Shown: in pieces, positions 8,730-44,286 of the stretch
Position numbering within the stretch: the stretch's first letter is position 1
How the letters are laid out: every line of letters begins with the position of its first letter
Assembly (NCBI GenBank): GCA_018061865.1
Contig: JAGOTH010000001.1
Coordinates: forward strand, 4,249-68,248
Length of the DNA stretch: 64,000 nt
Source: Minisyncoccota bacterium
Lineage (GTDB): Bacteria > Patescibacteriota > Minisyncoccia > Phycocordibacterales > UBA9973
Reading direction: 5' to 3'
Notes under the pieces: generated by a model
What the model saw: only the letters and a program-made list of their open reading frames with translations
Databases searched by the model: none
What the model was told of the DNA's origin: nothing
Translations under genes and position numbers: made by a program

Positions 8730-8873
8730 GAGTAGTCTAAGGGCTTTTCAAAAAAAACCCAAAAAGCCTTACAAAACAAGGTCAATAATACAAGTAAAAC
8801 AGACCTTTGGGAATGGGCTCATAAACCACCAAAAATGGTAAAATGGATAGGCATTAAAAGATTAAAATCATAT

Positions 8874-9428
8874 ATGAAATTAGACAAACAAAACAAAACA
8901 TACCTGGGAATTGCCGGGGCAATTCTGGTAATAATTGCAATAATCTTTGTTGGTAAAAAAGATGTAGAAGCCCCAACACCACAAGAGCCAGAAATAACAG
9001 AAGAAGAGACCACAGACACTCTAACAAGTGGTTATACTTTTGATGTTCCAGCTCTAGTTATCAACGAAGGAGATGTGAAAAGCTGTGCTTTCTCAATTGA
9101 AACTCCAAAAGTATTGAGCAAAGTAACTTTCCCTCTTACAATCACAGGAGAGATTGTGCCAAGCCTATCTTGTCCTTGGGTTAAATTCGAAGGAATGGGA
9201 GGAACAATCAAACTCAAAGATATAGACGGGAATGTTATCGCTGGACCAGTTGGATTCTCTGCTGGAGAGGAATGGATGAACACAAACCCATTCCCTGTTT
9301 CTGTAACAATTGATTCAGTTAGTAACGATTTTTCTGGAGATATAATTTATGTTTATCTTGAAGACGCAAATGCTGCCGACTCAAGCGAAAGCCCAACAAA
9401 ATATTATACTTTCCCAGTAAAGTACTAG
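8874..9428 (+). CDS. membrane-anchored Gmad2-like immunoglobulin-fold protein (putative)
   Basis: N-terminal TM (LGIAGAILVIIAIIFVG); C-terminal VKFEGMGGTIKLKD...DIIYVYLED resembles the Gmad2 fold; start taken at internal MKLDKQ. Confidence 0.4.
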   Translation: MKLDKQNKTYLGIAGAILVIIAIIFVGKKDVEAPTPQEPEITEEETTDTLTSGYTFDVPALVINEGDVKSCAFSIETPKVLSKVTFPLTITGEIVPSLSCPWVKFEGMGGTIKLKDIDGNVIAGPVGFSAGEEWMNTNPFPVSVTIDSVSNDFSGDIIYVYLEDANAADSSESPTKYYTFPVKY

Positions 9429-9438
9429 TCTCACATTA

Positions 9439-9469
9439 AAAAATCCCCCATAATCGTGGGGGATTTTTT
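9439..9469 (+). terminator. rho-independent terminator
   Basis: AAAATCCCCCATAATCGTGGGGGATTTTTT. Confidence 0.65.
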
Positions 9470-9483
9470 AATTTTTAAAACAG

Positions 9484-9746
9484 AGCCAACGATGGGAATT
9501 GAACCCATGACCTCACCCTTCGCTTACACCTCTTCTTTTTGTATACAAGAGGGCTAGACTGTATCTTATCCGATTCAAATCGGATCTCTTGTCAGTCGTT
9601 CGGGCCTCTTTAAAAGATGCCACGGTCTTGTCCTAAAATTAATCAGATTTTAACCGTTATTCGAGATTCAAATCGATATTACTATCGAATTGGGCGGGGA
9701 ACGGCGCTCCACCATGGGTGTGCTCTACCAACTGAGCTACATTGGC
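9484..9746 (-). tRNA. tRNA-Thr(GGU) interrupted by a group I intron between anticodon-loop positions 36 and 37
   Basis: Exon 1 (9746..9711): GCCAAUG UA GCUC AGUUGGUA GAGC A CACCC AUGGU. Exon 2 (9520..9484): AA GGGUG AGGUC AUGGG UUCAAUU CCCAU CGUUGGC U. The joined exons are near-identical to E. coli tRNA-Thr(GGU); anticodon loop AUGGUAA. Confidence 0.75.
9521..9710 (-). ncRNA. group I self-splicing intron (190 nt) in the tRNA-Thr anticodon loop
   Basis: 5' exon ends in U and a possible IGS GCCGU pairs with exon AUGGU (U.G at splice site); R-like GAACGACUGACAAGAG and S-like AAGAUACAGUCUAGCC form P7 GACUG/CAGUC; P8 hairpin AUCCGAUUUGAAUCGGAU between them; GNRA-capped hairpin UCGAUA-GUAA-UAUCGA; P9 hairpin CCUCUUG...AAGAGG; terminal G before 3' exon AA. 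Confidence 0.65.
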
Positions 9747-9774
9747 TGACATTAACAAGCGTAATTTATCATAT

Positions 9775-10377
9775 TTACCTTAGATCATCAATCTTAGAAA
9801 TAATAAAATCTCTAAGTTTTTTATTATTAAAATACACGGTCAAAACTCCATATTTTACTTTATTTTTATATGTACCTTTTTTCCCAGATATTGATATTAT
9901 AGTTTTATAAAATTGCTTATCTGAGATTGATAGTTTTTTCATCCAAAATTTTTTTGCCTCATCTTCTGATATGTCGTTAAAAAGCTGTAATCCAAATCTT
10001 AATTTTGACTTTTTTATTTTAAAAAACTTAATAAGAAAGATGACGAAGACCTTTATTAAATCTGGATCGGTATTACCTAATCTAACAGAATGAGGAGATC
10101 TTTTTGTCCCCTCTCCCCAAAATAAACCCAACCCTAAGCCAAATAAAAAATAATCTTCTGGTGTTTGGGGTAAGGCTACTTCGAAAGGGTCTCCCTTCGG
10201 GTTCCATTTAAGATAGATAGATTCTCCTATTGTTCTTTTCTTTATGTTGAATTTTTTGAAAAGATAATTTATCCCTGTTTGAGAATAACCTAACTTTTCT
10301 GCAATTTGAGAAACAGAAAATTTTTTATCTAAATAAAGACTTTCCAAAAGTTCTTTTTTAACTAAAACTCTTTTCAT
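9775..10377 (-). CDS. LAGLIDADG-like homing endonuclease candidate with N-terminal HTH
   Basis: Very AT-rich 200-aa ORF 28 bp upstream of the intron-containing tRNA-Thr on the same strand; motif FLFGLGLGLFWGEGT resembles a single LAGLIDADG; N-terminal SQIAEKLGYSQTGINYLFKKF helix-turn-helix. Confidence 0.4.
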   Translation of the reverse strand: MKRVLVKKELLESLYLDKKFSVSQIAEKLGYSQTGINYLFKKFNIKKRTIGESIYLKWNPKGDPFEVALPQTPEDYFLFGLGLGLFWGEGTKRSPHSVRLGNTDPDLIKVFVIFLIKFFKIKKSKLRFGLQLFNDISEDEAKKFWMKKLSISDKQFYKTIISISGKKGTYKNKVKYGVLTVYFNNKKLRDFIISKIDDLR

Positions 10378-10414
10378 ATACTATAGATATTATAGTATAT
10401 TAGTTTTCTACTTT

Positions 10415-11338
10415 CTACTCTTTTTCAATTTCCTTTAGGTATTCTATCGGTGTTAACCCACTGTCTTTTATTTCTTGCGCTGTCTCTACTCCAACATAAC
10501 GATAGTGCCACGGTTCGAATTTGTATCCGGTTACTTCCTCTTTTCCACTCGGGAAGCTCATAACAAAACCATACTTGTGAGCATTGGCCTGTAACCACAA
10601 ACCCTCCTTTGTGTCTTTAAATTTTTCAGACAAAACTCCACCCAGAGAAGAGCTGGAGAAGTCTACAGTTGTTCCGAGTTGATGCTCAGAGTGTCCGGCT
10701 TCTGCTACTCCACGAAGAGCGCTTGGTCCTTCTATTTTTAAATACAAATCAACTAGATATTTTTGAATTTCAAATTTTCTAAATCCGGAAGTAACGATTA
10801 TGTTCACATCAGAGTTTTTTGCATCCGTTAGCATCAAAACTAGAGGATCATAAGTCTCAGCAGAGACACAGATTATTCCGTTGGTTGAAATTGTGGAAGG
10901 CAGAAATTTCAAATCTTTTGGAACAAATCCTAAAGGCAAGCCTTCTTCCCTACTGAGGGGGAAAATTGTGAATGGATCCTCTTCTGAAGAAGAAGTTGGG
11001 CATAATTCTTTTTTCAAGTTTTCTGTTAGAAGAGTTTTTGTTTGAGAAGAAACCTTTCCAGTTTCAGGTAATGAATTATTCTTTTCAAAAAGTTTTAGAG
11101 CTGATTCTGTTTTTGGACCAAAGATTCCATCTGACTTTATGTTTTGCTCTGGCATAACAGACGCGAGATATGTCTGAACTGTCTTGACCTCAAATCCTGA
11201 ACTGCCTCTTTTTACTTCATACAAGAATCCCCCACGAGCTCTCCAAGTGTTCAGGGCTGACATATCAGGAAAATAGGCAAGCATTGTTGCCGGCAGAATA
11301 AAGCCTGTTATTAAAAATAATATTAGAAATTTCTTCAC
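10415..11338 (-). CDS. VanY/LdcB-like D,D-carboxypeptidase (peptidase M15B) with N-terminal peptidoglycan-binding domain
   Basis: Signal/TM anchor; PG_binding_1-like GFEVKTVQTYLA...DGIFGPKTESALKLF; M15 motifs SEHQLGTTVD and EPWHYRYVG. Confidence 0.75.
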   Translation of the reverse strand: MKKFLILFLITGFILPATMLAYFPDMSALNTWRARGGFLYEVKRGSSGFEVKTVQTYLASVMPEQNIKSDGIFGPKTESALKLFEKNNSLPETGKVSSQTKTLLTENLKKELCPTSSSEEDPFTIFPLSREEGLPLGFVPKDLKFLPSTISTNGIICVSAETYDPLVLMLTDAKNSDVNIIVTSGFRKFEIQKYLVDLYLKIEGPSALRGVAEAGHSEHQLGTTVDFSSSSLGGVLSEKFKDTKEGLWLQANAHKYGFVMSFPSGKEEVTGYKFEPWHYRYVGVETAQEIKDSGLTPIEYLKEIEKE

Positions 11339-11395
11339 AAATACACTTTACACTAAAAAGGGGTAATCAAAAACCACCACAAGGCGGTTTTTGAT

Positions 11396-11574
11396 ATGGC
11401 GCAGTCGACGGGAATCTCACATCGTCACAAGTTCCTCTTTGAAAACCTCTCGGTTTTCAATACTTTCCTCCACGGGGAAACGGAAGTTTCCCCGACCCCC
11501 TTCCCGTTCGAGCCCCTTTTCTGTACTAGAAACAAAAAGATGCCAAAAAATAATTTTGACATCTTTTTGTTTTG
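11396..11574 (-). repeat. ~180-bp tRNA-3'-end-associated element, copy A (downstream of tRNA-Asp)
   Basis: Terminator hairpin, then 65-nt core GGGGUCGGGGAAAC-UUCC-GUUUCCCCGUGGAGGAAAGUAUUGAAAACCGAGAGGUUUUCAAAG, then GUGAGA, then duplicate of the tRNA-Asp 3' end (UUCCCGUCGACUGCGCCA, with CCA) at 11397..11414, then a second terminator hairpin; paralogous to 39342..39528. Confidence 0.6.
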
Positions 11575-11648
11575 CGCAGTCGACGGGACTCGAACCCGCA
11601 ACCTCCCGCGTGACAGGCGGGTGCTCTAACCAGTTGAGCTACGACTGC
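11575..11648 (-). tRNA. tRNA-Asp(GUC)
   Basis: GCAGUCG UA GCUC AACUGGUUA GAGC A CCCGC CUGUCAC GCGGG AGGUU GCGGG UUCGAGU CCCGU CGACUGC G. Confidence 0.85.
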
Positions 11649-12502: not shown

Positions 12503-13147
12503 TTAAATATAATCAAACTCTCGGAAAGATCTCTCGAAATGAGTAAGGGCTTCTTTTGTTTCCGCATATGAAAGTTCGAACTTTGATCCTTCGTGGGCGA
12601 TTTTGTTTCGAACCAAGTGACCCTTCCAAGCATCCTGAACTGTTCGAAAATGTGCCGGAGATGCGTTCTTCAGCTTTTCTCCAAGAGTGTCTCCAATGAA
12701 CCCCTTCTCTTCAAGCATTTCTTCAAGCATCACGTCAGCTTCAATAATCGCAAGTCGTCTATCACTTTCTTTTATTGATTCTGATTCAGAAACAATTTTC
12801 TGCCACTGAGTAGACTTTGACGGAGCCATGGCCTTGTCGCGAGGAATATAGACCTTTAGTCTGTCAGCAAACTTTTTGTCTTCTTCCTTTCCGCGAATAT
12901 GAGAATAGATGATTACATAAATCAAAATAATTATGATTATTGTCGCAAGCACGATAAACCACCCAATCCCCGAACCACTACCAAAGAGTGCGTTTAGTAT
13001 TCCGTGCCAAATAAAATTAAGCAGTTGATACAATTTATAAAAAACATATTCGAGGTTTAGAAAAGTTGGGTCAGCAAAATTAATTCTTGATAAAAAAGGA
13101 ATCAAGATAAGGAGAGCTATTATGAGACCTAGGCTGGCTGCTGGCAT
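12503..13147 (-). CDS. membrane protein with C-terminal HEPN-like (Rx4H) motif
   Basis: Two N-terminal TM helices; C-terminal HLVRNKIAHEG (RNxxxH, HepT/HEPN-like); stop abuts gatA start (operon gatC-gatA-this). Confidence 0.35.
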   Translation of the reverse strand: MPAASLGLIIALLILIPFLSRINFADPTFLNLEYVFYKLYQLLNFIWHGILNALFGSGSGIGWFIVLATIIIIILIYVIIYSHIRGKEEDKKFADRLKVYIPRDKAMAPSKSTQWQKIVSESESIKESDRRLAIIEADVMLEEMLEEKGFIGDTLGEKLKNASPAHFRTVQDAWKGHLVRNKIAHEGSKFELSYAETKEALTHFERSFREFDYI

Positions 13148-39267: not shown

Positions 39268-39341
39268 CCACCCTTAGCTCAGTTGGTTAGAGCACAGAGC
39301 TTATACCTCTGGGGTCCTTGGTTCGAATCCAAGAGGGTGGA
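39268..39341 (+). tRNA. tRNA-Ile(UAU)
   Basis: CCACCCU UA GCUC AGUUGGUUA GAGC A CAGAG CUUAUAC CUCUG GGGUC CUUGG UUCGAAU CCAAG AGGGUGG A; anticodon UAU. Confidence 0.8.
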
Positions 39342-39528
39342 CATTATAAAAAACTCAAGACATATTTGTTTTGAGTTTTTTATAATTTTACTTTGAATTG
39401 GATTCGAACGGGAAAGGGGTCGGGAAAACGGGAGTTTTCCCGTGGAGGAAAGTATTGAAAACCGAGAGGTTTTCAAAAATTACGAACAGAATGTGAGTAA
39501 TTTGTGAGACTCCAAGAGGGTGGACATT
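39342..39528 (+). repeat. ~185-bp tRNA-3'-end-associated element, copy B (downstream of tRNA-Ile)
   Basis: Terminator hairpin, TATAAT, 65-nt core GGGGUCGGGAAAAC-GGGA-GUUUUCCCGUGGAGGAAAGUAUUGAAAACCGAGAGGUUUUCAAA, GUGAGA, 17-nt duplicate of the tRNA-Ile 3' end plus flank (ccaagagggtggacatt at 39329..39345 and 39512..39528), second terminator. Confidence 0.6.
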
Positions 39529-39566
39529 GAGTCTCTAATCAAAAAACCGCTTTCGCGGTTTTTTGA

Positions 39567-41495
39567 TTAATCTACTATATCTATCGCCTCTTTACCCTCT
39601 TCTTTTTTCTTCGGTTTAATTCCGAAAGTCATTATCAATTTATTGTATTCGTCTTGTTCTAGAGTTTCTACCTCAAGAAGTTTCTTTGCAATAGCATCGA
39701 GAACTTTTCTGTTTTCTTTTATTGTCTTTCTGGCAAGCTCAAGAGAATCATTCATTATCTTTTTTACTTCTCTATCTATAACGGCAGACATTTCTTCAGA
39801 ATAATCTTTTCCTCCATCTACATATCCGTGGATTATTTTTCCTCCGTCACTCTCCAGTGCCACAGGACCAATTGCATCACTCATTCCCCATCTGGTCACC
39901 ATAGCTCGGGCAAGAGAGGTTGAAACTTGGAGATCGTTTGATGGGCCAGTTGTAACATCACCGAAAATTAACTCTTCTGCAACATATCCTCCAAGAGACA
40001 TCGCAATATCATCTAGAAATTCTTTTTTAGATTGAAGTCTTCTGTCTTCAACTGGAAGCTTGAGTGTATATCCTCCAGCACGTCCACGAGCAACAATAGA
40101 AACTTTGTGAACTGGATCAGCGTTCGGCAGAATTGAAGCAAGCACTGCGTGTCCCGCTTCGTGATACGCCGTGATTTCTTTTTCCTTTTTAATCATCAGA
40201 TGACTTTTTCTAACCGGACCGAGCATTACCTTTTCAATAGATTTCAAAAGATCGTTTTGAGAAACTGTTTTTCTGTCTTCACGAGCGGCAAGAATTGCTC
40301 CTTCGTTCATAAGAGAATATAAATCAGCACCAGAAAATCCTGGAGTTCTCTCAGCGACAACTTTCAAATCAACATCACCGGCAAAAGGTTTCTTTCGAGC
40401 ATGAATTGTAAGAATGTCTTCTCTGTCTCGACGATCTGGAAGATCAAGGATTACTCGACGGTCAAATCTTCCTGGTCGAAGAAGTGCTGGATCAAGAACA
40501 TCACTTCTGTTTGTCGCCGCCATAACAATAACTTTCTCGTTTGGCTCGAATCCATCCATCTCAACGAGTATCTGGTTTAGAGTTTGTTCTCTTTCATCGT
40601 TTCCTCCACCAATTCCACTTCCTCTCACTCGTCCAACAGCATCTATCTCATCAATGAAAACGATTGCGGGAGAGGCTTTCTTGGCCATCTGGAACAAGTC
40701 TCTCACTCGAGACGCTCCCACTCCAACAAACATTTCTACGAATTCACTTCCTGACAAGTGGAAGAACGGAACACCCGCTTCTCCCGCCACCGCTCGAGCA
40801 AGTAAAGTTTTTCCAGTTCCTGGAGCTCCAGTTAGAATCACTCCTTTTGGAATACGAGCTCCAATATCAATAAATTTTTTCGGATTTTTCAAAAAATCTA
40901 CAATTTCTTTCAATTCTTCTTTTGCCTCTCTTGCACCGGCGACATCTTTGAAAGTAACTCGATTATTTTTGTCATTTGGATTTGTTATTCGAGCACGAGA
41001 TTGTCCAAAGTTAAAAGCCTGCATTCCAGCTCCTTTAGCTTGTCGGGCGATAAACCAGAAAAAGAAAACCAAGAAAAGAATTGGAATAAGAATTGGAAGT
41101 AGATTGAGTATCCAGTATCCAACACCTGATTCACTTTTTATTCCAACCTCAACTAGAGACAACTTTTCATCCGTTACTCCTAGATTTTTCAAAGACTCAA
41201 GAACTCCGCTCTCTGCTTCTTTCTTGCTCTCTTGAAGAGATCCGTCCATTAGCTCAATAGAAATCTTTTCTCCTTCAACTTCTACCTTCTTCACTTGGCC
41301 GAGATTTATTTCAGACGCTAGAGTAGAGAGAGGTATTTCTGTCTTTTCCACCTTGTCCCCTGTGATTGTGTAAATAGCCGAAAGAGCCATAAAAATAAGA
41401 ACAATAAATGTGAAGTGAGTGAAAAAGGAAGGTGTTTTGTTATTGTTTCCTCCCTTTTTCCCCATTTTTTTGTTTTTCTTTAAGAAGTTATCCAT
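39567..41495 (-). CDS. ftsH: ATP-dependent zinc metalloprotease FtsH
   Basis: N-terminal TMs, AAA Walker [17 protein letters not shown] zinc motif; 642 aa. Confidence 0.9.
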
Positions 41496-43535: not shown

Positions 43536-43775
43536 TTATGTGATGTGTTTTTTGGTGAAGGCGTGGCCGGAAGAAGATTTTAGATATTTTTCAAAATCAT
43601 AAGCTTTATACTTATCTAAAAAAGCACAATACCATATTAATTTAAATGGGGCTTTGCTTTTATTTGATTTGGTCTCAAGATTATTATGTTCGGCAATTCT
43701 GTTTTTTAAATCTTTTGTAATGCCAATATATCTTGAGTCATCTTTGAGGCTCTTTAATATGTAAACATAGTACAT
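43536..43775 (-). CDS. GIY-YIG nuclease family protein (YhbQ-like)
   Basis: YYVYILKSLKDDSRYIGITKDLKNRIAEHN; start at internal MYYVY; directly 3' of ssrA. Confidence 0.75.
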   Translation of the reverse strand: MYYVYILKSLKDDSRYIGITKDLKNRIAEHNNLETKSNKSKAPFKLIWYCAFLDKYKAYDFEKYLKSSSGHAFTKKHIT

Positions 43776-43901: not shown

Positions 43902-44286
43902 TGGTGGAGATGGGCGGAATTGAACCGCCGTGCAAAGAGGAACAAAATAATAATCTACATGTTTAACAAATTTTTTTGTTTTAAGTTAGAGTGATATATA
44001 AATTTGTAAAAATCACTCTCCCCGATCTCATTTTCTCGACTCTGTGTTGAGCGACACAAAATCATAGTTTCTATTTATAACACCTTACTTCTTCCAAGAA
44101 ACCAGAAAAAAGAGGCGCTAACCATAGCTTAAAAGCTTACGCTAGAGCGAAGGCCTTACTTGCGTAAGGGCTCTCCACTGATCCAAATGTTTTTGCATTT
44201 GAGATTTTGTATAGTTTTTAACGGGCTCCATACTCCCCGACATGCAACTATTCTGAACAATCTCCCTGTCGATGCCTAGCATCCCC
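43902..44286 (-). ncRNA. ssrA: tmRNA (ssrA)
   Basis: 5' GGGGAUGCUAGGCAUCGACAGGG; 3' GGCGGUUCAAUUCCGCC CAUCUCC ACCA with G3.U70 wobble in the acceptor stem; candidate tag ORF ending ...KAFALA-UAA; terminator hairpin immediately 3'. Confidence 0.8.

Follow-up and report, generated by a model that had tools for sequence, protein, structure and literature searches.

The insertions at tRNA-Asp and tRNA-Ile

The window analysed here is a stretch of 64,000 nucleotides from a Minisyncoccota bacterium (contig JAGOTH010000001.1, positions 4,249 to 68,248), in which a short element stands immediately downstream of a tRNA-Asp gene and a second copy of it downstream of a tRNA-Ile gene. Each has a conserved core with an antisense copy of the end of the adjoining gene on one side and a sense copy on the other, and the two belong to a widespread structured-RNA or repeat family in the Patescibacteria (ultra-small bacteria of the Candidate Phyla Radiation, CPR) that matches no described element. 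The best reading is that the family is a mobile cassette which finds gene ends through base pairing and short homology and does not disrupt the gene.

The first target, tRNA-Asp(GTC), lies on the minus strand at 11574-11648 (ARAGORN; Rfam 72.6 bits; sequence), and all coordinates given for this copy are on that strand. The order of parts after the gene, reported in a preliminary description of this DNA as a hairpin, a core, GUGAGA, a copy of the tRNA end and a terminator, was confirmed from the minus-strand sequence. The final 15 nt of the gene (X, TCCCGTCGACTGCGC, 11574-11588) are followed directly by an A/T-rich hairpin predicted by folding (T1, 11530-11572), which forms the tip of a long imperfect palindrome built from X and an antisense arm. 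This arm, overlooked in the preliminary description, is the reverse complement of the T-loop and the 3' strand of the T-stem and lies 5' of the core (rcX', GGGGCTCGAAC, 11506-11516; sequence and fold). It complements G53-C63 of the tRNA with one G.U pair, and in the minimum free energy (MFE) fold of 11396-11597 it pairs with the T-loop and T-stem around T1 (z = -6.0). The core itself is 70 nt long (11436-11505; covariance model R1, 99.6 bits) and consists, in order, of GGGAAGGGGGUC, the hairpin P1 (11473-11494), GUGGAGGAAAGUAUU, the hairpin P2 (11441-11458) and AAAGA. A variable linker (11414-11435; sequence, MFE folds) terminates in GACGAT-GTGAGAT, the last seven bases being 11414-11420 (ATCTCAC on the plus strand); in the MFE folds the GA of the linker and the opening bases of the sense arm are able to pair with GGGGGUC, closing the core. 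The sense arm (X'', TCCCGTCGACTGCGCCA, 11397-11413) copies tRNA positions 60-73, the 15 nt TCCCGTCGACTGCGC being identical in gene and duplicate, and adds CA. Beyond it is an intrinsic-terminator-like hairpin (T2, 11366-11395), similar to the T2 of the second copy.

The element had been described as inserted exactly at the 3' end of the tRNA. It does adjoin the tRNA, but the left edge of the repeat lies within the T-loop (after position 58/59) rather than at the discriminator base, and the point of insertion is ambiguous inside the repeat. The presence of CCA in the duplicate and not in the gene is likewise a correct reading of a one-base difference (GCGCCA in the distal copy, GCGCAA in the gene), but it is no trait of the family, as the Ile copy and most others are without CCA. 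Among the loci and contig stretches compared (numbered L001 and so on), the relative L001 encodes CCA within the tRNA-Asp gene itself; comparison of window 11574-11579 with L001 1687-1692 shows that the window gene is without an encoded CCA through a single C-to-A difference. The element in L001 has lost its 3' half (X'' and T2), and a gene for a haloacid dehalogenase (HAD) hydrolase comes next.

The second copy is on the plus strand, after tRNA-Ile(TAT) at 39268-39342 (ARAGORN, Rfam, sequence). X of this gene is TCCAAGAGGGTGGACATT (39328-39345), T1 is a predicted 20-bp hairpin (39343-39386) which has a promoter-like AAGACA-18-TATAAT inside its 3' half, and the antisense arm TTGGATTCGAAC (39398-39409; from sequence) complements G53-A64 of tRNA-Ile perfectly, the palindrome fold having z = -10.4. 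There follow the core (39410-39479; R1, 100.6 bits), with P1 at 39421-39442 and P2 at 39457-39474, a variable hairpin P3 with GTGAGAC (39480-39510, the motif at 39504-39510), the sense arm X'' TCCAAGAGGGTGGACATT without CCA (39511-39528), and T2, a two-way terminator hairpin (39537-39568) that abuts the ftsH stop codon (39567-39569). The resemblance of about 90% between the two cores noted previously is real, with identity at 62 of 70 positions (89%; hand count on the alignment), and the copies have an identical block of 38 nt, for which the chance expectation is 0 matches. The T2 motif is otherwise not common within the window, and the idea that T2 is a genome-wide terminator type is therefore unsupported.

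It is worth adding that a tRNA-Ile with anticodon UAU is a rare mode of reading AUA, and that this gene is convergent with ftsH. The arrangement is retained in the relative L041 (FtsH 75% identity), which has a different or degenerate insert at the matching site (L041 4440-4580, minus): the tRNA 3' end in inverted orientation (CGTGTCC), then a GC-rich stretch and GGGTC-hairpin-GTGACGAC, without P2 and without X''. This insert may be an internally deleted unit or may represent a second family.

Distribution of the family

Searched with a 20-mer of the core, representative genomes yielded seven true copies, all of them in metagenome-assembled genomes (MAGs) of Patescibacteria type (Paceibacterota, Saccharibacteria, "Patescibacteria group" and one bin labelled Bdellovibrionales), and a second core 20-mer gave about 15 additional true copies in metagenomes. 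Both scans of these large collections used exact 20-mers from the most conserved block, so that the diversity of the family is under-sampled and the conservation of P2 inflated. The covariance model R1 was constructed from seven copies; it recovered 21 strong copies (type A), weaker matches to three variants with altered segment order, and five extra matches in three rpsI loci of Moranbacteria-like genomes. The total beyond the pair in the window is about 30 copies, in Patescibacteria MAGs and metagenomes. Within the window the model finds only the Asp and Ile copies, and the two-member family of the preliminary description is therefore correct for the window and too small for the family.

Searches of existing collections found no counterpart. 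Rfam, at the gathering threshold and at E up to 10, returned only tRNAs, tmRNA (transfer-messenger RNA) and sub-threshold noise; blastn against phage and plasmid collections gave no match, nor did a pattern scan of viral contigs, and a full-text literature search found nothing describing the element. The nearest paper concerns group I introns in CPR tRNA genes, at position 35/36 of the anticodon loop (PMC13011429).

Assemblies break within the element, which is consistent with a repeat. The contigs L037 and L038 end 119 nt past the ftsH stop (about window 39448), inside the core, and L050-L053 end 15-48 nt past the rpsI stop codon. Independent assemblies thus break in the core or past the rpsI stop, and the element acts as an assembly-breaking repeat.

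Architecture and predicted fold

The order of parts is the same in every copy: X, an optional T1, an antisense arm of 8-27 nt that corresponds to the start of X, the core, X'' and usually T2. The unit measures about 130-230 bp and contains no open reading frame (ORF), the core accounting for about 70 nt. The consensus between the antisense arm and X'' runs GGRAA-GGGGUC (G-rich), P1, GYKGGNGGAAAKUAYU, P2, AARGAR, a variable P3 and GA(C); in tRNA-type copies a conserved GUGAGAU, which looks like a T-loop, stands between GA(C) and X''.

The compensatory change from G-C to A-U in the first hairpin, pointed out earlier between the two window copies, is real and is one of six covarying pairs among 21 members. 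The covariation check across copies thus supports P1 as a helix: in six of its nine pairs both sides vary, paired cells make up 97.9%, and none of 500 shuffles reaches the score. P2 is almost invariant among the matches, partly because the search patterns fell within it, and shows compensatory variation in divergent copies (AAAACC/GGUUUU, CAAACC/GGUUUG). A Shine-Dalgarno sequence with a small ORF in the core was considered and rejected, as the P2 compensation changes the peptide, and divergent copies have GGCGG or GGTGG in place of GGAGG. On a hand reading of the sequences, the G.U pairs seen in P1, P2 and the arm helix are all on the tRNA-sense strand, from which we conclude that this is the strand that folds.

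Folds of the two window copies, taken from the T-loop through X'', show the antisense arm paired with the T-loop and T-stem around T1 in a single long palindrome. In these models the palindrome of X, hairpin and antisense arm is a predicted double-stranded mimic of the target. The core, too, is closed in these folds, GGGGUC pairing with GA and the first bases of X''. In rpsI copies the closing helix is perfect (GGGGUC:GACCCC or GACUCC). A universal closing helix GGGGUC:GAYYCC was rejected: it holds in the rpsI-type copies and in both window copies, and only weakly where the duplicate starts GUCC.

Two departures from the standard core were found. In a rearranged variant (L004, L009, L027), GGGGGUC and one strand of P1 are positioned 3' of P2, and this variant may be a circular permutation or a pseudoknotted relative. 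In two unrelated loci (L024 2590-2790 and L026, minus, about 520-690), one core is nested inside the P1 loop of another, an arrangement kept in both; it is either a two-domain RNA or an element within an element.

Targets and specificity of the arms

The core is constant across many unrelated targets, and both arms always match the adjoining gene end. Cores with 89-97% identity are found at different tRNAs, at rpsI and at ORF 5' ends, and direct repeats of the target gene end, 15-63 nt long, are found in nearly all copies. At least 15 different tRNAs are targets, among them Asp, Ile(UAU), Arg(GCG, UCU, UCG), Val, Trp, Gln, Leu(CAA, UAG), Ala, Asn and Thr. In L011, L013, L014, L025, L049 and L054/55 the target is the 3' end of rpsI, and in L016 (= L022) and L027 it is the 5' end of an opposite-strand ORF, two such protein genes being used. 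In L024 and L026 the double nested core is upstream of the 5' end of a tRNA. We note that L024 also has, directly past the double core and 60 nt before an intact tRNA-Arg, a pseudo-tRNA (2790-2860) consisting only of the 5' 53 nt, through the 5' strand of the T-stem, and that its break is at the T-loop position where elements join.

Arm-pairing counts, like the codon-position counts given below, are hand tallies from the sequences. Over 17 tRNA copies the antisense arm matches its own tRNA at an average of 5.7 of the seven specific positions (59-65), against 4.2 for other tRNAs, and none of 20000 permutations did as well. Some arms meet the T-loop by a tandem G.A/A.G mismatch, not by Watson-Crick pairs.

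The common target is the terminal segment of a conserved gene, and the element is always outside the intact gene. Because rpsI ends, the 5' ends of ORFs and the 5' side of tRNAs are also used, the T-loop is not the target as such. The non-autonomous mobile element of the preliminary description stands as the best of the three options offered there, apart from its restriction to T-loops, which the rpsI 3' end and the protein-gene 5' ends contradict. The option of a small RNA with a tRNA-like 3' end does not hold as it was put, in that the CCA is unconserved and the 3' arm copies whichever gene end adjoins. An independent small transcript is plausible, to judge from the promoter-like site and terminator of the Ile copy.

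A primer-binding site for a mature tRNA, of the kind used by long-terminal-repeat retroelements, was likewise rejected: CCA is found in the Asp copy only, copies other than Asp follow the genomic flank rather than CCA, and non-tRNA targets exist. A fixed motif TTCGA, as for an IS605-type element, fails because non-tRNA targets are without the motif and the left flanks of tRNA, rpsI and ORF targets share none.

Origin of the duplicated gene ends

Protein-coding targets show where the duplicates come from. The similarity between X and X'' ends exactly at the stop or start codon, the four differences between them in L011 are all at synonymous third positions, and in L027, which has two 63-nt copies, the differences between them are spread 11:4:1 over codon positions 3:1:2. 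Because the differences are mostly at third positions and the similarity ends at a start or stop codon, the duplicates derive from different alleles. The 11:4:1 codon bias and the start- and stop-codon boundaries rule out a simple duplication of the target site with later neutral decay.

Units are also arranged in tandem, nested and layered arrays, and alignment shows how these grow. The locus in L025 is an L014-like locus with one unit added on the side of the gene, and the copy that serves as the functional rpsI end in L014 has been displaced and mutated in L025. Two units are present in L054 and one in L049. The outer copies are the most decayed, the outermost in L025 having a premature stop. 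These comparisons show that new units arrive gene-proximally and displace the older copies of the gene end outward, where they decay.

The duplicates are also hybrid in character. The acceptor strand of X'' in L002 (CAAGCGC) is unpairable with the resident 5' strand GTCCTTG, and fits the tRNA-Arg allele in L024. The distal rpsI copies in L025, L049 and L054 have common substitutions (CCC-T-CA-T-TGGG against CCC-A-CA-A/G-TGGG), the 3' part of the distal copy in L025 and L049 agrees with the resident gene, and the antisense arm remains complementary to the wild-type rpsI gene and not to X''. The 5' part of X'' is thus shown to travel with the element, its 3' part tending to match the resident gene, and such hybrid distal copies are the pattern expected of a Campbell-type crossover in the 3' part of X or in its terminator.

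Linked proteins and recombinase islands

No recombinase was found between the repeats in more than 25 loci, and the full-length, integrase-bearing elements that had been proposed as something to look for were not encountered there. An all-against-all comparison of the ORFs of 23 loci gave no recurrent family except genes of conserved gene order. The neighbours of the Asp and Ile copies in the window are housekeeping genes (VanY, FtsH, RecG, MscL and similar). A recurrent neighbour of 214 aa was rejected as a partner: it is a membrane protein in a constant position by a tRNA cluster, with no nuclease or recombinase signature. A conserved membrane protein of about 210 aa is found at window 12503-13147, L001 114-755, L029 1761-2309 and L027 2221-2886, and its position beside element-bearing tRNA clusters in these four loci is probably conserved gene order and not a functional link.

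L005 has a large-serine-recombinase island of 5.7 kb between tRNA-Leu and the core, with its own 8-nt repeat GGGCACCA. The island is located outside T1, the antisense arm and the core, and is read as a separate insertion into a locus that already carried the element. No core is present within 9 kb of three other islands with a recombinase of this family, which sit at tRNA-Asn and tRNA-Glu ends, or of a fourth recombinase locus, L047 (no tRNA in the stretch examined). A large serine recombinase as autonomous partner was therefore rejected, no core being present in the islands of L005, L024 and the three more that were examined.

Such islands are themselves a feature of Patescibacteria tRNA 3' ends, with more than 1400 recombinase homologues at E < 1e-40. 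Examples are L005 120-5790, L024 33-1367, L042/L043 about 8780-10490 and L048 9001-10548; in these the recombinase gene converges on the tRNA and overlaps it, and the cargo of one island includes a SacI-like restriction enzyme and a D12 methyltransferase.

A proposed cassette that homes to gene ends

Taken together, we favour, with a confidence only a little above even, the reading of the family as a small, protein-less, non-autonomous cassette which spreads horizontally and, in Patescibacteria, targets conserved genes at their ends. Any particular enzymology for it is held with far less confidence than that. The cassette could work as follows. A folded single-stranded intermediate (RNA or single-stranded DNA, circular or tandem) would present its two arms to the two strands of the target, the arm helix of the intermediate opening onto both strands of the target duplex. 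Integration would then be of Campbell style: crossing over within the short stretch of homology provided by X or its terminator would duplicate the gene end. The partner in the crossover would be a unit arranged, in a circle or in tandem, as X*-T*-antisense arm-core, and products with an intact proximal gene end would be retained. On such a model only gene ends would be seen as targets, because integration would duplicate the end and leave an intact gene. The core would be the putative active part, and would act either as a ribozyme or as the scaffold on which an enzyme provided in trans works.

Several observations weigh against this reading. An empty-site search through relatives of FtsH and S9 recovered no empty site in a close relative: every strain-level contig was occupied, the S9 relatives examined were also occupied, and the nearest FtsH relative (75% identity) holds a degenerate insert. 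The boundaries of the insertion are ambiguous within the repeat. The tRNA-Asp and tRNA-Ile sites are occupied in the fairly distant relatives L001, L029 and L041, so that much of the inheritance is vertical. The element was not seen free, circular or excised; no enzyme acting in trans was identified; catalysis by the core is putative; and expression is hinted at solely by one promoter-like site. The closing helix GGGGUC:GAYYCC is weak in tRNA copies whose duplicate begins GUCC. Lastly, an element moving to a new gene would have to acquire a new antisense and a new sense arm together, which the model does not account for.

A more far-reaching form of the homing proposal is that the family is a new class of mobile element without need of a protein of its own, in which 70 nt of structured RNA or folded single-stranded DNA, with one arm per strand, directs and perhaps catalyses its own insertion at essential-gene ends of the genome-reduced CPR bacteria. 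This we put forward tentatively, as a possibility that falls clearly short of even.

Alternative explanations

The alternative that survives best, unlikely as it is, is movement at the RNA level driven by a ribozyme. In this case the core would be a small self-cleaving or self-ligating ribozyme, the antisense arm a guide and X'' a 3' exon, and a unit-length RNA would be excised, circularised and copied back into DNA, in the manner of a trans-splicing or reverse-splicing ribozyme or a retrozyme. Engineered trans-splicing ribozymes have the same order of guide, core and replacement exon; the closing helix has a sharp junction at its base (GAC|X'' or GAGAU|X''), across which the guide pairs in tRNA-type copies; the joining strands are conserved and rich in purines; and the core is also found with rearranged segments, as is known from hammerhead and twister ribozymes. 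However, no known ribozyme model matches: three scans at E up to 10 found none of the self-cleaving families (hammerhead, twister, hairpin, hepatitis delta virus-like, pistol, hatchet and others). At 5'-end targets the element is antisense to the gene, so that RNA-RNA targeting would have no shared logic, no reverse transcriptase was seen near any copy, and cutting at the guide-paired site would destroy the tRNA.

A host-serving RNA that does not move, with a role in 3'-end processing, termination, insulation or regulation and with its stem produced by local duplication, comes next and is likewise improbable. The strong conservation of the core sequence across CPR classes and the occupation of the same sites in distant relatives would suit it, as would the copies in tRNA clusters and in spacers of rRNA-operon type (L018, L026), which are necessarily co-transcribed, and the promoter-like site and terminator of the Ile copy. 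It does not account for the allele-type coding divergence of the gene ends, which is not expected from local duplication and decay, nor for the tandem, nested and layered arrays and the heterogeneous targets in both orientations relative to the gene; and most tRNA genes are without the element (four of the six tRNA and tmRNA genes in the window).

Behind these two stands the deletion remnant of an integrative element suggested in the preliminary description, that is an att scar or cis-mobilizable element (CIME) left by a tRNA-integrating island, the core being the attP arm region once bound by an integrase. We consider it improbable. Direct repeats of the gene 3' end do flank the insert like attL and attR, tandem accretion occurs at one site, and large-serine-recombinase islands do occur in CPR genomes at the 3' ends of tRNAs, in one case (L005) nested within the locus of an element. 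Yet there is no integrase or other linked recombinase between the repeats in any of the more than 25 loci, three independent serine-recombinase islands are without the core, and the L005 island is separate, with a repeat of its own. The near-identical cores at more than 17 targets are inexplicable by att sites read by a protein, and the core covaries as an RNA does, can be rearranged and is missing from the islands. Moreover, the T-loop differs between copies (GTGAGAT against TTCGAGT), which is a poor fit to the overlap of a tyrosine recombinase.

Chance, or a single segmental duplication in this genome, would suit a window with merely two copies but is refuted by the identical 38-nt block and by the presence of the core elsewhere, beside many other genes in about 30 other contigs.

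Comparison with known systems

In function, the closest parallel is an integrative element that restores the gene it targets, and the family is bridge-RNA-like in having one arm per strand. With integrative elements and CIMEs it shares insertion at a gene end, an intact gene and a displaced partial copy as direct repeats, and tandem accretion. It differs from them in having no recombinase or att arms, in using one core for many targets, and in its antisense copy of the target, RNA-like covariation and units of about 130-230 bp. Of the characteristics of a CIME, the direct repeats are present; a recombinase and a single att specificity per lineage are not.

The bridge (seek) RNA of IS110/IS1111 is a structured non-coding RNA whose two variable arms match the strands of the target (PMC11208160). 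Similarly, the arms of the present family match both strands of the adjoining gene end, and specificity is changed by changing the arms. Unlike the bridge RNA system, the family has no DEDD recombinase gene, no donor-binding loop and no similarity in Rfam or in sequence; its arms are contiguous and of 8-27 nt and 15-60 nt, against split guides of 4-9 nt, and its target is wholly on one side and duplicated. No second pair of guides that would match the element's own ends is present in the fold, which consists of P1, P2, the variable P3 and the terminal arms. An omega-RNA of IS200/IS605 type was also rejected, as there is no tnpB or iscB and no Rfam match to omega-RNA or HEARO, and the target is duplicated.

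Folded single-stranded attachment sites offer a further parallel. In attP(+) of the CTX phage (used by XerCD) and in attC of integrons, a hairpin in a single strand recreates the double-stranded chromosomal target, and structure counts over sequence. These sites mimic one fixed, protein-recognised site, whereas the hairpin of the family varies with its target, and the family is without a known dedicated recombinase.

Trans-splicing group I ribozymes, and group II introns with their exon-binding and intron-binding sequences (EBS-IBS), combine an antisense guide, a catalytic core and a replacement 3' exon, the guide spanning the junction. By contrast, the core of the family, at 70 nt, is far too small, and its host gene needs no splicing. 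A group I intron was rejected because there are only P1-P3 and no P3-P9 core, there is no terminal G (U or C precedes X''), and a U.G pair is found in one copy. A group II intron was rejected because there is no GUGYG, domain V or ORF, the best match being group-II-D1D4-7 at 20.1 bits in one copy against a gathering threshold of 34. Group II introns are reported to be absent from Patescibacteria (PMC13011429).

Small repeats of several kinds also invite comparison. Miniature inverted-repeat transposable elements (MITEs) and the Correia, RUP and REP/BIME repeats are short, non-coding, intergenic, repeated and foldable, and they cause assembly breaks. The family differs in being without terminal inverted repeats or a fixed target-site duplication, and in having target-matched arms and a replacement gene end. 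A MITE was rejected because the sole inverted repeat is that of element against target, and because the direct repeats, at 15-63 nt, have allele-type divergence.

Homing-endonuclease cassettes (atp6 of Allomyces mitochondria; seg/mob of phage T4) bring in a foreign gene end, and the old end decays downstream, with the result that the copies of the gene end show divergence of coding type. Such a cassette encodes its endonuclease, whereas the present family encodes no protein.

Cautiously, the family can be filed as a small, non-autonomous, site-specific insertion element. Even on this cautious reading it is a widespread structured-RNA or repeat family of the Patescibacteria that is absent from Rfam, that explains assembly breaks beside tRNA and rpsI genes, and that accounts for pseudo-tRNA and pseudo-gene ends which confuse annotation; its layered arrays also record the order of successive arrivals at one gene end. 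If the arms do programme the insertion site, this would be the smallest known programmable insertion system, and one without an element-encoded protein. Retargeting would then need only a change of arms, the family would represent either a natural minimal system for programmable DNA insertion or a new class of ribozyme, and it would bear on RNA-guided recombination and on the persistence of selfish DNA in genomes of 1 Mb.

Other features of the window

Two further features may be noted. A free-standing GIY-YIG ORF of 79 aa (about 43536-43775, minus; mapped from L030 721-960) is flanked by a DnaG-type zinc-ribbon ORF and the tmRNA/SmpB locus. The tmRNA itself (43902-44286) has an unusual tag of 19 residues, AKTFGSVESPYASKAFALA.

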